This document shows, in pieces, positions 9,001-27,000 of a stretch of DNA of 64,000 bases. Origin of the DNA: Endomicrobiales bacterium (GTDB lineage: Bacteria; Elusimicrobiota; Endomicrobiia; Endomicrobiales; CAWCFT01); NCBI GenBank assembly GCA_963794945.1, contig CAWCFT010000001.1, positions 320,001-384,000 on the forward strand, in the 5' to 3' direction. How positions within the stretch are numbered: the stretch's first letter is position 1; each line of letters begins with the position of its first letter. Position numbers: made by a program.

Positions 9001-12000
9001 CAGCCGTATTCGCCCAGTCTGTCACCCAAATTAATATTATAGTTGTTAACACAATAATGGCAGGCCTTTTGGGGAAAGCGGCTATAACATACCTCTACTA
9101 CGGCAACAGGCTGATGCAGCTGCCGCTGGGCGTTTTCGCTGTGGCTATAGCCACGGCGACACTTCCCGTAATTTCACGGAACATAGCGAAAGGCGAGCAT
9201 GCTGAGGCCATCAAGAACTACTCATTCGCCTTGCGCTTGGCTTTTTTTATAGCCATTCCCGCTACCGTGGGCATGATAGTCCTCAGCTTGCCCATAAACT
9301 GCCTGCTGTTTCAGTATGGGAAATTCGCTCTGGCGGACGCGCAGGCAACCGCGAAGACCGCGGTACTGTTTAGCCTCGGTTTGTTCGCTTTCTCCGGAGT
9401 TAAGATAACCGTGCCTATATTTTACGCGCTGAACGATTCAAAAACACCCGTGAAGATCGGCATTGTAACAGTAGCGTCGAACATACTGCTCGGCCTGTTA
9501 TTGATGTCAAAGATGAGCTATTTCGGGTTGGCTCTATCAACCTCACTTTCCGCAACGCTCAACTTTTTCCTGCTTACATGGTTCCTTAGGAAAAAATTAG
9601 GAAGTATTAAGGGTTCGGAAGTTCTCAATTCGGTACTGCGGATATCGGTCGCAGCTGCCGTAATGGCCGTTGTCTGCTGGCTGGTTTACCATGCTGTCCA
9701 TAACCATATTAACTTCGGCAGCGGACATCTTTCGGCGAAACTCAACCAGTTGGCTGAGGTATCAGCAGGTATATTTATCAGCATAGCGGCCTTCCTGGCC
9801 GCCTGCTGGCTCCTTAAGGTTCGAGAACTACAGCTTCTGTTTCAGATGATATCATCGGGAAGGACACCTGATTCAGCCGAAGCGGAAGCGTGGAAAGAAT
9901 AGCAGAAAATTCAAAAATCAAGAATCAAAAATCAAAAATGAAAAGCAATCAATAAACCTCTGACAGGCAGTTTTAAAAAGGCCGCCAATGGCGGCACCTC
10001 ATATTTGACATTTAATTTTTGATATTTGATTTAATATAAAATGGAACACAAAATCGACCTCTCTTCTTTGCCTGACGCGCCGGGCGTCTATATAATGCGG
10101 GATTCTGCCGCAAAGATCATATACATCGGCAAAGCCATATCCCTCAAAAAAAGGGTCTCTTCGTACTTCAACAAATCGCCGGACATGAAAACGGTGGGGA
10201 TATTATCGTCCCTGCGGCACATAGACTTCGTGCTTTGCGCTTCCGAGCGGGACGCCCTTGTGTTCGAGCGGCTCCTTATCAATCAGCACAAACCTTTCTT
10301 TAACGCGATGTGGAAAGACGACAAATCTTACCCATACCTCAAGCTCACCCTAAAAGAAGATTTTCCAAGGCTGATACTCACCAGAAAAAAGTTAAATGAC
10401 GGCGGCGAATATTTCGGCCCGTACCCGCACGTCATACAGATCAAGAAACTTCAATTGTGGCTGTCAAGGATATTCAAGCTCAGGCTGTGCAAGATAGATA
10501 TTTATAAAAACAGCCTGCCGAAAGCTTCCAAAGTAAAGTCGTGCCTTTACCTGCACACTGGAAGATGCTCCGGGCCCTGCGTTGGCAGGATAAACGCGGA
10601 AGAATACGGAAAACTTATCAAAGAAGTAAGGCTTTTTCTGAAAGCAAGATACGTGCAGTTAAAAGAAGTTTGGGAAAAAGAAATGAGCGAAGCAAGCAAG
10701 GCCCTGCAATACGAAAAGGCGGCCGACATCCGCGACAGGCTTGGGGCTCTGGGCCAGATGCAGGAAAAGATCATAGTAAGGGAGATGAAAAGCGAGGACC
10801 TTGAACTTTCGCTCCAAAGCACGGACGCTCTAAAGGAACTAAAAGATGTATTGAAGCTTAAGTCGTGGCCCATAGTCATAGAGGGGTTCGATATATCAAA
10901 CATTTCAGGCACCCTCGCGGTTGGTTCAATGGTCAGTTTCCGCAACGCCCAGCCGGATAAATCTTCGTACAGAAAATACAAGATAAGAACGGTTGAAGGC
11001 TCGGATGATTTCGCGATGATAAGTGAAGTTGTTTACCGCAGGTATAAGAGGCTTTCCACTGAGAAAGCCGCGCTGCCTGACCTTGTGCTTATAGATGGAG
11101 GCAAAGGGCAGCTGGCGGCCGCGATGGAGGCTATGAAAAAACTCGGATTAAATAAAGTTCCTCTGGCGTCGCTTGCAAAGAGAAACGAAGAGATATTCCT
11201 GCCGCTGAACCCCAACCCGGTATTGCTTCCAAAAGGCTCACCTGCGCTTCATGTCCTGCAGCGCGTCCGCGATGAGGCGCACCGTTTCGCGCTTGCTTAC
11301 CACCATAACCGCAGGAAAAGCTTATTACTTTCAAATAAGAGATAGTTGAAAAAGCTATCAACTATCTTGATTACGGTGATTATCCGCCAATGGCGGACTT
11401 CGATTACAGTGATTGGAATCTTGATATCACCGTAATCTTCCATTCTTGTCGCTGTAATCAGTCCCGCCTTGGCGGGTTCGATAAGTAAAAATCCTTCATA
11501 AAACAGCGTTAATTACTGCTTGACATCAAAGTTCATCTGTGTTATAATTAGGCTCAAATGAGGGGCGTTACCTTTACAACACCAATTCCAGAGTTTTTTC
11601 CAACCAGGCTACACAGTGAAAGGCCCTCAGCCTTTTTCCATAATTATTTCAATTTTACTAAAAATATTGTTCAGTATTCACTTGTTATTATTAATAAGAA
11701 GTCTTTTTTCATTTAAATAGATCTTCATACTTGGGGCCGTGGTTCAAAAAGGGGAAAATGCAAAAAAATCATATGTTGATCACCGGGATCGGTGTAGTAT
11801 CGCCCTGCGGCGCTAGGCAAAGATATTTTTTTTAACTGCCTTGAGTCCTCTAAAAACTTACTGGCAAAGCCCAAGAATATTTCGTATTCAGGAGCTGCAG
11901 GCGAAGTCAATGATAAAGCGGTTCTAAAGTATCTCGGCGAAAAAGGCGTGCGTAACCTTGACAGAAGCGCGCTGGTACTGCTGGCTGCTGTCGGTATGGC

Positions 12001-24000: not shown

Positions 24001-27000
24001 ATTTGAAATCGTCGCAACTTGATGTTGGATTGTTGGTAAATTTTGGAAATAACAGTTGTCAAATCAGACGTCTAATGAAATCGCATAATTCGCATTGTAA
24101 ATCGTTGTAATCGTTGTTAGTAATCGCTGTAATCAATTTATCCATAGGATAATTAAATGAAAAAATACTACCATAAAGACCTTGAAAAAGCAGCACGGCA
24201 GATGATACTTGTTCGCAAGGTAGATACCCTTGCTAAACTTATCGTGCGCACTATAATCAGGAATATACATGTAAGGCACGCGGGGATCTTTCTTTTTGAC
24301 AAAACAAAAAATGAATACATAGTCAAAGTGTCGAAAGGAAAATTAGGCATAAAGATCCCAGTAGGTTTTACTAAAGTAAAGAGCGATAATGCAATAATCA
24401 GGTTCTTTACGGATAAGACCGTAGGAAAATACTTCAAACAAGACTTCCTTCTGTACAATAAAATTAATTACCGCTTCAAATGTAAAACACATTCGGAAGA
24501 TAAAAATCTTCAAGATTTCCTTAAGAAATTGAAAAGCGAGTTCTCTTTATACCAGGCTAAAGCTTTTATCCCGGGATTTTATACGAACAATCTGGTTGGC
24601 GTGTTATTCCTTGGCGCAAAGGATGATAACAGCAGTTTTAAGGCTGATGAACTTGGATTTTTGTTTGTTCTTGCTTCGGATGTGGTAATGGCTATTCAGA
24701 ACGCCTGGCTTTTCGAAGACCTCAACAGCCAGCTCGATATCAACAAGAAATTATTTTTAAGCACTGTTACGGCACTGGCAACAGCTATAGAAGCAAAGGA
24801 TAAGTATACGCTAGGGCACACCGAGCGGGTAGTAAAATATTCAACTGCCATAGCCAGGAACTTGCCAGGGATAACCATACCCAACAACAAGGATTTTGAG
24901 GAAAATCTTAAGATCGCGGCTTTATTGCATGACATAGGAAAGATAGGTATATCAGAAAACTTGCTCAACAAGAGCGATGCCTTGTCACCGAAAGAAATAA
25001 AGGCCATTAATGAGCATCCTTTGATGGGTGTGGAGATACTTAACCCTATCAGCGAGTTCAAGGATGTTCTGCTGGGTGTAAAATATCATCACGAGAGATA
25101 TGACGGCAAAGGCTATCCTTTCGGGCTTAAAGGCGATCAGATACCTTTAGCCGCGGCAATTATTGCCGTAGCCGACGCTTACGACGCCATGACAAGCGAC
25201 AGGCCGTACAGAAAAGCATTAAGTGACGCTGAAGCGTGCAATCAGATACTGCTCAACCGCGAGAAGCAGTTTAACCCCGTTGTAGTTGATGCGTTCTTAA
25301 AGGTTTATAAGAATAAGGATGTAATTGAGGATAGTATCGGCAGTGCCGAAACAGTATCTGCGAAGACTAAAGAAAAAAATGCCTCCAATAGTTCCGAACT
25401 GAACCCGGTACAGGACCTCTCCGTTAGAGCCAATTAATGTTAAAGTTATTACTGACTCTCGCCACATTGCTGCTAAATTCCAGCGCGGTACATGCCATGT
25501 ACGGAAAGCTTGTCATGTGCAACGGCCACTCTTTTACTGGGGATGTCAGGAAATTAGAGAACGGGAATTACTGGGTATCCACTAAAATAGGTTCCATTGA
25601 GATCGAGAAAAACGAAGTAAAATATGTTAAAATATACTCAACAAAAGACCCTGTTTCTGAAAGTTTTATAGGCGCGATGAAGATCACGCCGGGCCAAACC
25701 GGTTCGCAAAATAGCGTCCGTCAAACGGGAAGTTACGACAATCTCATTTCAAGGGAATCTTCTAAAAATAATATAGACCCTGCGCTTGTGAAGGCCGTGA
25801 TAAAAGCGGAATCTAATTACAACAAGAACGACGTGTCTTCAAAAGGCGCCTGCGGTCTTATGCAGCTTATGCCGGGCACGGCAAAGCTGCTTGGAGTAAA
25901 AAAGATCTTTTCTCCGGAAGAGAACATACGAGCCGGGACCAGGTTCCTTAAATATATGTTAGATGCTTTCGATGGCGATATAGAGATGGGCCTCGCTGCC
26001 TATAACGCGGGCCCATCGAAGGTTAAGAAATACGGTAAAGTCCCTCCGTATAAAGAAACAAAGAACTATATTGTAAATGTCATCAGATATTACCGCGCAT
26101 ACGGGAGCTCAGGTTCAATAACAAGCTACACGGATGAGAAAGGATGCCTGAACCTTTATAATGCAAAATAACACGATTTCTAAAAAATTAATGTCAAAAA
26201 TAAACAAATACCCTGTGTTCTACCGAAAGGTATGGCTTGCCTGTTTGTTGATACCCAGTGGCAAGACCAGAAGCTATGGAGAAATAGCAAAAATAATAGG
26301 CCACCCCGGAGTGGCGCGGCGCTGTGGGTCAGGCTCTCGCTAAGAATCCATTCGCTCCAATAGTCCCTTGTCACAGGGTAGTGCGAGGAGACGGTAAACC
26401 CGGAGGGTATTCAGGCCCGGGCGGCGTGAAAAGAAAACTTGAACTCCTAAATAAGGAAAAACAATGAGTCAGTTGCGATTAATAATCTCTCAACCCTCAA
26501 ACGGCCCGACGAATATGGCCATTGATGAGGCGTTGTTCAACAGCAAGCTGAGAAATCCGGGGCCGGCGACAGTCAGGATATACACATGGGAGCGCGCTTG
26601 TATAACAATTGGATATTTTCAGAAATATAATGAATTTGCGGCATACGGTTTACCGGTGACAAGGCGCATGACAGGCGGCTTATCGGTTGTTCACGGCAAA
26701 GATGTCTCATTTTCCTTTGTTTTAGATGACTCTACATGGGAGCATATTTATGACCAGGAGAAAACATACCATGTCATACACTCGGGTATAAAGGACGCAT
26801 TGGATATCTGCGGCATAAAAACAGAGTTTGTGAAGACTGATGTATCGGCAAGAAACAATCCCAATAAAGGAAATATTTGCGTTCAAACCCTTTATCCTTA
26901 TGACCTTCAGTACAACAATAAGAAGATAGTCGGTTCGTGTCAGAGAAGAAGGGGGAAAACGATGCTGGTCCAGGGTTCGATCCACCTGCCTAAATCCGTA

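Follow-up and report, generated by a model that had tools for sequence, protein, structure and literature searches.

A Cluster I-type ketosynthase core joined to interchangeable release enzymes and membrane sensors: a possible system for making and sensing a lipid signal in uncultured bacteria

In uncultured bacteria of three phyla, the enzyme core known from the anammox ladderane Cluster I is combined with a release enzyme and a membrane sensor that can both be exchanged, an arrangement that, judged from sequence, suggests a system for making and sensing a lipid signal. The window analysed here, a 64,000-nucleotide stretch of an Endomicrobiales genome, carries one such cassette (Table 1).

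Table 1. Features of the cassette, with positions along the 64-kb window
Feature	Position	Strand	Remarks
Candidate sigma-70-like promoter	11520..11548	+	12/12 consensus plus TG extension; 210 bases 5′ of CLF start
CLF-like ketosynthase without catalytic residues, amxFabFmut type	11759..12976	+	Frameshift near 11810; long ORF 11948-12976
FabG-like ketoreductase (KR)	13082..13816	+	
FadL/OmpP1/TodX-family outer-membrane channel	13997..15325	+	PF03349, E 2e-27
Acyl carrier protein (ACP)	15388..15645	+	Best PDB matches 9S5I_E, 7QV0_D, 7AUF_A
amxFabZ-type dehydratase (DH)	15713..16204	+	Tunnel Ile present
Active-type ketosynthase (KS), amxFabF2 type	16209..17423	+	C164/H295/H332
ParB_N + HTH orphan, passenger	17640..18392	+	8 more matches in G000
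Phytoene-dehydrogenase/carotenoid-isomerase-like flavoprotein (PDH)	18438..19865	+	Low GC3, 0.33
Stand-alone thioester reductase (NAD_binding_4), predicted chain-release enzyme	19905..21011	+	Low GC3, 0.35
HisKA_7TM-GAF-histidine kinase, mosaic	21027..23195	+	Exchanged sensor ~21027-21710; cytoplasmic part host-like
Stand-alone receiver domain	23205..23582	+	
GxxExxY (PD-(D/E)XK) passenger gene	23712..24110	+	Missing at this place in G151
GAF-like + HD-GYP c-di-GMP phosphodiesterase	24157..25437	+	No receiver domain of its own

The genes named in the genome-wide survey's note are present on the + strand in the order that it gave. Its CLF start at 11948 has to be moved upstream, as CLF homologues align from 11810 in the frame of the long ORF, and a typical KS N-terminus is obtained, in a different frame, from the ATG at 11759. 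Because secA, a GAF-ANTAR gene, leuS and fabG are likewise frameshifted, the CLF frameshift is probably an assembly indel. The candidate promoter is the only 12/12 consensus match among the 61 sites found, where shuffles led us to expect 35. The ParB-like orphan, which the note already regarded as interrupting the cassette, was rejected as one of its parts, since it was unseen in 80 GTDB loci, in which gaps of this kind are taken up by other small mobile genes. The GxxExxY gene was rejected as well, given its absence from the same place in the sister genome G151; as it lies between receiver and HD-GYP, the reported kinase-receiver-HD-GYP run keeps its order and is not directly contiguous.

The core of the cassette is, by sequence, that of Cluster I, which in Kuenenia (KustE3603-3608) comprises amxACP, amxFabZ, amxFabF2, amxFabFmut, a PDH and a B12 radical SAM protein (bioRxiv 10.64898/2026.05.19.726425, PMC10139942, PMC2649909). 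A KS/CLF heterodimer and its activity have been shown for the anammox proteins alone (bioRxiv 10.64898/2026.05.19.726425). As the note had recognized, the catalytic C/H/H is kept by the KS and replaced in the CLF, which has F/C/E at those places; among relatives, the KS triad is intact in 90 of 90, and E replaces the second His of the CLF in 119 of 124. Sequence searches of the PDB gave 9S5H_C as the best match for the CLF (407 vs 306 bits), 9S5H_B for the KS (400 vs 332 bits) and amxFabZ entries for the DH (131-145 vs 94 bits), while Cluster I proteins led only narrowly for the ACP (45 vs 42 bits). We infer from residue matches that 9S5H is the heterodimer of the preprint (bioRxiv 10.64898/2026.05.19.726425), the text of which gives no PDB code. 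When the CLF model was searched by fold, FabFs were matched, 9S5H being absent among the matches listed. The CLF tunnel residues Phe135/Thr138/Val139 are present as F68/T71/V72 of the 342-aa ORF and recur among 124 relatives (F in 123, T in 113 and V in 113). The active-site residues of the CLF (F, N, K, E, Q), on the other hand, are nearer to those of Kuste2805, shared at five of eight tabulated positions, than to those of Kuste3606, shared at three. Two of the three elements of the amxFabZ signature (Ile69, a hydrophobic residue at 115, Ser/Thr at 96) are found in the window DH, which has Ile, Ile and Lys, and Ile69 occurs in 69 of 96 DH relatives.

Both gene sets include a dead-triad FabF paralogue beside an intact FabF, the CLF tunnel residues, the tunnel Ile of the DH, the ACP-DH-KS order and a PDH-like gene, although the window flavoprotein (18438-19865) was matched by type and is set beside KustE3607 with no claim of orthology. 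By contrast, the window cassette begins with the CLF, adds KR, FadL, release enzyme, 7TM kinase, receiver and HD-GYP, belongs to hosts other than anammox bacteria and has no B12 radical-SAM gene, the nearest matches on the contig lying ~25 kb upstream and ~70 kb downstream; such a gene was seen inside a CLF cassette only in L153.

The conserved order from synthase to sensor claimed in the note is now firmer, as it extends over three phyla and the sensor domain changes together with the release enzyme; the counts given here were made in sets independent of the 38 loci used there. Even sampling of 251 Omnitrophota genomes gave 32 informative CLF+KS loci, 27 of which end in a HisKA_7TM gene on the same strand and 1.0-5.6 kb downstream (crude chance 0.4-0.5%). 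Among 80 GTDB loci, a kinase ends 37 of 39 informative ones, and the presence of Elusimicrobiota, Omnitrophota and Nitrospirota disposes of the concern that the loci share one lineage (the phylum labels of L015, L054 and L087, Planctomycetia at NCBI, and of the unclassified L035 and L089 were assigned in this analysis). By Pfam, 52 of 63 terminal kinases are HisKA_7TM and eight are MASE8-PAS kinases, which were left out of the trees. CLF-KR-DH stand apart from the KS in nine further loci. Of the genomes sampled, 197 of 251 from Omnitrophota and 75 of 251 from Elusimicrobiota have the HisKA_7TM family. A search of the genus around G254 gave one genome and no cultured host, and a search of sequencing runs listed one DNA data set, with a small share, and no RNA data set.

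The slot before the kinase is filled by interchangeable, predicted chain-release enzymes: a NAD_binding_4 reductase, an acyl-ACP-reductase-like protein, a WbuX-like amidotransferase, a SAM methyltransferase, a LuxD-methyltransferase fusion or a third intact KS. The thioester reductase, which the note had not found in 45 genomes of the class, is present in 13 of the 80 GTDB loci. The methyltransferase of G151 had unnamed class I matches only, so its identity with PhcB is not established. Upstream acyl enzymes also extend beyond this cassette. Among 23 HisKA_7TM genes from 20 Elusimicrobiota regions that were picked by hand and lack this CLF, 17 follow an acyl- or lipid-type enzyme, including four PilZ fusions and two members of the AONS family (that of CqsA), and six do not. 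The PilZ fusions are no more than a hint of positive feedback on the expression of the synthase.

The window kinase, which retains its H, N, G1 and G2 boxes and scores 48.7 bits against HisKA_7TM (PF16927; curated cut-off 28.6), is a mosaic. Its identity to the G151 kinase is 23% in the sensor and 66, 66, 68 and 60% in the later segments, whereas that to L043, a Nitrospirota locus with the reductase upstream, is 47% in the sensor and 26-33% in the kinase; the switch occurs at residues 200-240. In AU tests, for which the groups were picked after the identities had been seen, the window+G151 grouping was rejected for the sensor (p 0.004) and the window+L043 grouping for the kinase (p 1e-6). In both G000 and G151, a stretch of low GC3 covers the genes for release and the 5′ part of the kinase gene.

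Similar exchanges are apparent among 66 kinases: the sensor tree has 24 changes of release class, the kinase tree 33 and shuffles 42, while changes of phylum number 13, 5 and 23, respectively. This comparison was made without L105 (not a kinase), two L108 rows, the duplicates L111, L113 and L114 and the near-identical L118, and alignment A5 was used without L131. Given the kinase, partial Mantel tests related enzyme to sensor for the reductase (r 0.28, p 0.007, n 19) and for the third KS (r 0.45, p 0.016, n 13), both being modest correlations across rows that are not independent; the core CLF, KS, KR and DH follow the kinase, not the sensor. Eleven of the 13 third-KS sensors, from several kinase clades, fall in one clade (support 0.996) together with one reductase sensor, and the other two lie outside it. 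Reductase-linked sensors span more than one clade, and L015 and L026 have a common enzyme set and different sensor clades. Sensors thus appear to track the release enzyme and kinase cores the host, which is the agr pattern, with a modest effect.

A sequence search of the PDB with the sensor region gave no match. Foldseek with the sensor model found nothing at E≤0.001, its weak matches all being GPCRs, and a wide structural search returned GPCRs at Z 13.6-16.2. The GPCR likeness of 7TM histidine kinases has been reported previously (PMC13581589) and, consequently, is not claimed as new here. The modelled GPCR fold points to no particular ligand.

The kinase output probably feeds c-di-GMP. The phosphoacceptor Asp of the receiver is intact, as are the HD, HHExhDGxGYP and RxY[K/R] motifs of the HD-GYP protein; of its KPG motif, Lys alone is kept. 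A full-length GAF-HD-GYP gene with a receiver before it comes after 17 of 27 sampled Omnitrophota cassettes, and none was found in the DNA examined around the other ten. Nitrospirota relatives carry REC-HD-GYP, and in L105, which lies behind a PilZ-thioesterase, 7TM, GAF and HD-GYP are fused. The note had proposed a lipid signal read through c-di-GMP and a cassette “hard-wired” to the 7TM kinase, receiver and HD-GYP: the link between synthase and sensor stands and the gene order holds, while the c-di-GMP output is a genomic prediction and, as the window HD-GYP protein carries no receiver domain, “hard-wired” is too strong.

Our best reading, which we hold with a little more confidence than doubt, is that a self-made acyl signal is sensed by a GPCR-fold receptor that probably feeds c-di-GMP, with agr-like specificity groups. 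A predicted KS/CLF heterodimer, with its own ACP, KR and amxFabZ-type DH, whose genes and residues are observed, would build a short-to-medium acyl chain, as anammox homologues prefer C6-C8 chains, and the chain would be unsaturated, as there is no enoyl reductase gene. The enzymes observed to be exchanged would then modify and release it; in the window, the PDH-like flavoprotein and the thioester reductase may yield an aldehyde or alcohol. By analogy, the product would leave the cell and come back via FadL. The 7TM domain, whose co-exchange with the release enzyme has statistical support, would bind it and, if all this is granted, it is more likely than not that the host-inherited kinase core phosphorylates the receiver and acts through GAF-HD-GYP on c-di-GMP, as the gene order suggests. 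More tentatively, and with rather less confidence than in this reading, the large HisKA_7TM family may consist of GPCR-fold receptors, each for an acyl lipid of the cell's own making, in exchangeable agr-like groups across Omnitrophota, Elusimicrobiota and Nitrospirota, the Cluster I core being the signal synthase in most non-anammox hosts.

Alternatively, the product could be an envelope lipid or acyl anchor (an ether-lipid fatty alcohol, a polyene or a ladderane-type precursor) and the kinase could sense an unrelated envelope or outside cue to regulate the cassette, which we consider unlikely. PrsK-type 7TM-GAF kinases are thought to regulate surface systems, and the window kinase matches PrsK weakly over its length (E 1.5e-21, far under cut-off). 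The closest solved relatives come from a cluster proposed for membrane ladderanes, and 5 of the 32 sampled Omnitrophota loci have the core and no receptor, with no PF16927 match anywhere in genome G251; the receptor-less L135 and L152 lie before a housekeeping plsX-fabH-fabD-fabG-acp-fabF run, and L153, the deepest CLF branch, lies among glycosyltransferases with its B12 radical-SAM gene. However, in the CLF tree the copies that lack a receptor mostly branch from within those linked to one, the window cassette has no glycerol acyltransferase or lipid flippase gene, and what follows the kinase is a single receiver and an HD-GYP protein instead of a transcription factor. The exchange of sensors with release enzymes of such diverse chemistries and the unrelated acyl enzymes before other HisKA_7TM genes would also be left unexplained.

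Somewhat less probable still is that the sensor binds the product cell-autonomously or defensively, either because a lipid within the membrane or a reactive aldehyde is kept under feedback control or because an antagonistic or host-directed compound is detected, with no density signalling between cells. This would explain the co-exchange equally well, and it suits the redox flavoenzymes (nitroreductase, GMC oxidoreductase) at many loci, the RND efflux set in the synthase slot of L099 and the lack of FadL in nearly all cassettes. FadL is present in two only, both from Endomicrobiales: that of the window, to which the note had confined it, and that of G151 (52% identity). Nevertheless, FadL and 7TM genes stand side by side in four independent cases (window, G151, L108 and L109), and repeated inter-phylum exchange and several tandem enzyme+sensor modules per genome (L023, L040, L060 and L083) suit identity signalling better. 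Finally, a recombination hotspot between the anchoring KS and kinase core, where enzymes and sensor hitchhike together with no functional coupling, is improbable: small mobile genes (ParB-like, GxxExxY, AbiEii, HEPN/MNT and IS200) do land in cassettes and, on a common set of 15 loci, the correlation with the sensor is almost as good for the PDH (r 0.25, p 0.06) as for the reductase (r 0.31, p 0.007), so that part of the signal may come from linkage alone, but in three phyla, and with unrelated enzyme families, the enzyme still precedes the 7TM gene, the split-off half in G255 (L157) still runs KS, reductase, nitroreductase, PDH, 7TM kinase, receiver and HD-GYP, and most third-KS sensors, from several kinase clades, group in one clade.

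Ladderane producers are not genetically accessible, and there is no direct evidence for the role of Cluster I (bioRxiv 10.64898/2026.05.19.726425); likewise, no ligand for HisKA_7TM sensors is named in the papers found. As the Cluster I-like relatives come with release enzymes of their own, they would be expected to yield a free product in E. coli, where both the product of the core and the HisKA_7TM ligand become testable questions, and the natural enzyme-sensor pairs offer a matrix of cognate and non-cognate combinations. If our best reading is true, a type II KS/CLF line would here be devoted to signalling between cells, which our literature search did not turn up elsewhere; if the receptor-family reading is true, it would provide the first ligand for that family and a clonable route to the Cluster I core product. 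No description of the cassette with the kinase was found in that search, which covered few subscription papers and left outside it the preprint supplement, where non-anammox homologues may be listed.

Among known systems, the highly reducing type II PKS (ishigamide Iga11/Iga12, aryl polyene ApeO/ApeC and cispentacin AmcF) share KS-CLF, KR, DH and ACP and the lack of an enoyl reductase, the ishigamide KS (6KXD) being the second PDB match of the window KS. They differ in that the window cassette has no starter-unit ligase, cyclase, glycosyltransferase or NRPS, and its score with the AmcF profile is 220 bits against a cut-off of 325. In CqsA/CqsS, LuxM/LuxN, RpfF/RpfC/RpfG (DSF) and PhcB/PhcS, the synthase of an acyl-derived signal adjoins a membrane kinase. 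There, one enzyme acts on housekeeping acyl-ACP or acyl-CoA, whereas the window locus has a dedicated KS/CLF line; profile searches of the window found no CqsA, LuxI/M or RpfF family match, its cassette has no RpfF-type crotonase, and the window has no PhcB-type SAM methyltransferase. AONS-family and methyltransferase genes before related kinases recall CqsA and PhcB, and the HD-GYP output recalls DSF, although RpfG is REC-HD-GYP and the window protein has GAF instead of REC. In CPR genomes, pairs of quorum-sensing synthases (CqsA, LuxI and PpyS homologues) and sensor kinases have been predicted (PMC7567580), so that complete signalling systems were also inferred there from adjacency in uncultured bacteria; KS-CLF synthases and sensor exchange are unmentioned in the available portion of that paper. 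Staphylococcal agr (AgrB/D/C/A; PMC5007282) has a peptide thiolactone signal, another sensor family and a DNA-binding regulator, and no homology is claimed; what it has in common with these cassettes is the combination of variable signal-making genes and a variable N-terminal membrane sensor with a conserved kinase, in specificity groups.

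Domain searches (Pfam, NCBIfam) bear out, with corrections, the gene order that the genome-wide survey's note had claimed for the window: a chain-length-factor-like ketosynthase (CLF), ketoreductase (KR), FadL, ACP, dehydratase (DH), ketosynthase (KS), ParB-like gene, phytoene-dehydrogenase-like flavoprotein (PDH) and thioester reductase, followed by a HisKA_7TM-GAF kinase, a receiver, GxxExxY and HD-GYP. The contrast drawn there between an active KS and a catalytically dead CLF also holds, as the former carries C164/H295/H332 and the latter F/C/E. Besides the CLF gene, other core genes (secA, a GAF-ANTAR gene, leuS and fabG) are frameshifted, which points to assembly indels; the motifs of the signalling proteins in the cassette are intact. 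The window is G000:C1:320001-384000. Its locus is shared by G151, a genome of the same order, as L036, placed by NCBI in Endomicrobiales, which makes the host a member of the Elusimicrobiota.

Positions of features in the window and in compared loci
Feature	Sequence	Position	Observation
Dispersed intergenic repeat	window	11346-11460	10 other matches in the window's genome (G000)
Predicted sigma-70 promoter	window	11520-11548	12/12 consensus; upstream of CLF
CLF gene	window	start near 11759	frameshift near 11810
Dispersed intergenic repeat	window	12977-13060	5 other matches in G000
Dispersed intergenic repeat	window	13817-13936	2 other matches in G000
ParB_N+HTH orphan	window	17640-18392	8 further matches (27-38% identity) across G000; GC3 host-like
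7TM-kinase paralogue	G000:C16	35457-37593	frameshifted; downstream of PfkB gene, same position as L103 in sister genome G151; no synthase nearby
PilZ-HMG-CoA-reductase fusion	L094	6764-8305	immediately upstream of 7TM kinase
PilZ-HMG-CoA-reductase fusion	L096	6692-8278	immediately upstream of 7TM kinase
7TM sensor fused to GAF-HD-GYP	L105	1961-4078	downstream of PilZ-thioesterase
Two AONS-family PLP enzymes	L108	G124:C1:1813500-1833000	one PilZ-fused; each immediately upstream of 7TM protein; FadL gene between
CLF and methionine sulfoxide reductase domain	L155 (= L020 locus)	2283-4238	one frame; no PF16927 match in this genome

The note's interpretation, a lipid signal read out through c-di-GMP, stands in part. 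A kinase ends nearly all informative KS-containing loci of a GTDB set; receptor-less copies of the core exist. A GTDB search with a CLF alignment gave 351 relatives, and the best 80 of these comprised 39 informative loci (with a KS and enough DNA), 36 that were too short and 5 without KS. Among these 39, the terminal gene is a HisKA_7TM kinase in 25, a MASE8/PAS-type kinase in 10 and a short GAF kinase in 2, with none in the other 2. In an even sample of 251 Omnitrophota genomes, CLF was found in 44 and the 7TM domain (PF16927) in 197, with 564 matches in total. The 47 places retrieved there with the CLF profile include 27 where KS is followed by 7TM at 1.0-5.6 kb, the rest being KS without 7TM (5), CLF-KR-DH without KS (9), loci cut short (5) and a FabF-type locus (1); the chance rate, a crude figure, is 0.4-0.5%, and related genomes are not independent. 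Within the order to which G254 belongs, 38 of 151 genomes have CLF, and clear cases in Elusimicrobiota number only 3 of 251 (G000, G151 and G111). We rank as most likely, with modest confidence, that the cassette is a locus that makes and senses an acyl signal and whose specificity is exchangeable.

Some arrangements depart from this layout. In ten Nitrospirota cassettes (L041, L047, L048, L058, L064, L071, L075, L076, L080 and L084) a terminal MASE8-PAS kinase replaces the 7TM kinase, and in most of them a (PilZ-)methyltransferase lies upstream of CLF. CLF-KR-DH is separated from KS in L121, L125, L129, L134, L136, L138, L146, L147 and L156; such split sets have a conserved position downstream of riboflavin genes (recognised in L085/L086), and in G255 the kinase-bearing other half lies on a separate contig (L157).

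The receptor-less copies favour another reading, in which the cassette makes a structural lipid and has a linked regulator. L135 and L152 lie upstream of housekeeping fatty-acid genes, and the Omnitrophota locus L153 (G316:C3) has KR, CLF, KS, PDH and a B12 radical-SAM gene amid glycosyltransferases. Given these contexts, the core probably has a second, structural use. L153 is the deepest branch of the CLF tree, and most other receptor-less copies nest among receptor-linked ones. For the cassette itself we regard the structural reading as unlikely.

Signal making and sensing would also agree with the company kept by other HisKA_7TM genes. In a control of 20 hand-picked, non-random Elusimicrobiota regions, an acyl- or lipid-type enzyme stands immediately upstream of 17 of the 23 7TM genes, and 6 have none. 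These enzymes are aldehyde dehydrogenases (6), KS-ICMT-radical-SAM sets (5), PilZ-HMG-CoA reductases (2), AONS-family PLP enzymes (2), an acyl-ACP reductase and a PilZ-thioesterase, which suggests that the receptor family is generally partnered by small-molecule enzymes, the window cassette being one case. In same-order genomes (L090-L093, L100 and L102), a 530-aa aldehyde dehydrogenase directly precedes the 7TM kinase; the sensors of these loci share a broad clade with the reductase-linked sensor of the window, as would fit a predicted, related aldehyde/acid chemistry. In L097, L101, L104, L106 and L107, whose sensors form one clade, the kinase is preceded by a FabF-like KS, an ICMT methyltransferase, an optional ThiF and 1-3 B12 radical-SAM genes. 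At pLDDT 94, the AlphaFold model of the sensor resembles GPCRs in its fold (Z 16.2, with an rmsd of 3.9 across 210 residues), a likeness stated before for 7TM kinases (PMC13581589); the relevant passage of another source lists the domain and gives no ligand (PMC5847659). Long-chain AHLs are described as taken up by FadL (PMC9938287). That sensing of the product is cell-autonomous or defensive seems to us rather improbable.

Regarding output, a receiver and then a full-length GAF-HD-GYP lie downstream in 17 of 27 sampled Omnitrophota cassettes, and REC-HD-GYP occurs in Nitrospirota relatives (two verified by Pfam). Four enzymes of the control set carry PilZ, and G000 has 11 GGDEF and 9 PilZ matches. 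L099 retains kinase, receiver and HD-GYP with an efflux set upstream, so these three genes act like a backbone belonging to the host; receiver control of GAF-HD-GYP is putative.

The slot between KS and kinase is variable. It may hold an NAD_binding_4 reductase, an acyl-ACP-reductase/PigE-like reductase, a WbuX-like amidotransferase, a SAM methyltransferase, a LuxD-methyltransferase fusion or a third intact KS, frequently besides PDH, nitroreductase or GMC oxidoreductase. Between flanks identical in kind, G151 has a methyltransferase where the window has PDH and reductase. The GC3 of these two genes (0.33-0.35) is in the lowest 2% of 1022 long ORFs, and GC3 climbs over the length of the kinase gene; the G151 values start at 0.36 and reach about 0.6-0.7. 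As the membrane proteins MurJ and YfhO have host-like GC3, the low values are not due to membrane-protein nature.

The sensor has been exchanged together with these slot enzymes. The window and G151 kinases share 23% identity in the sensor and 60-68% elsewhere, and the closest match to the window sensor in the compared set (47%) is that of the Nitrospirota locus L043, likewise downstream of a reductase, with kinase parts 26-33% identical; identity switches at residues 200-240. AU tests, on groups chosen once identities had been seen, rejected two groupings for the sensor, window plus G151 (p 0.004) and the pair of L023 paralogues (p 0.0002), and one for the kinase, window plus L043 (p 1e-6). 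When mapped onto trees of 66 kinases, release class, the type of slot enzyme, requires 24 changes for the sensor and 33 for the kinase (42 in shuffles), and phylum 13 and 5, respectively (23 in shuffles). Partial Mantel tests gave 0.28 for reductase (p 0.007, n=19) and 0.45 for third KS (p 0.016, n=13); core enzymes track the kinase. Against a pairing of sensor and release enzyme, PDH follows the sensor nearly as well as reductase does (15 shared loci), reductase-linked sensors spread over several clades, and L015/L026, L119, L133 and L040 are clear exceptions. Pure linkage of slot enzymes and sensor, which draws on the PDH finding, is the reading to which we give least credence.

As for known systems, the core is of the type of the anammox ladderane Cluster I, judging by sequence. 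In the PDB, the CLF profile scores highest with 9S5H_C (407 bits, against 306 for the next different protein family) and KS with 9S5H_B (400; next 332). The top matches of DH are five amxFabZ entries, so named in the relevant part of PMC10139942 (131-145; next 94), and those of ACP, by a small margin, three anammox-complex ACP chains. The amxFabF2 and amxFabFmut proteins assemble into a KS/CLF-like heterodimer with a preference for C6-C8 probes (10.64898/2026.05.19.726425), and 9S5H is probably that complex, from matching catalytic and tunnel residues. Among 124 relatives, 113-123 conserve the CLF tunnel residues; the DH tunnel Ile is present in 69 of the 96 compared for it. The window cassette lacks the B12 radical-SAM gene of Cluster I, so it is predicted to work like the Cluster I core and is not Cluster I itself. 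By the tests made on it, the cassette belongs to neither Cluster I nor the DSF systems and probably not to the Phc systems, as the window has no PhcB-type SAM methyltransferase. Omnitrophota antiSMASH 'ladderane' calls are reported, with function unknown in the part concerned (10.1101/2022.12.20.521206), and our literature search found no description of the cassette together with its kinase. L153 nearly matches the Cluster I gene set. The layout of L108 is like that of CqsA, but its enzymes (201 and 233 bits) fall under the CqsA-type cut-off of 428. Finally, the sensor-exchange pattern of these cassettes is the one described for agr in the pertinent section of PMC5007282.
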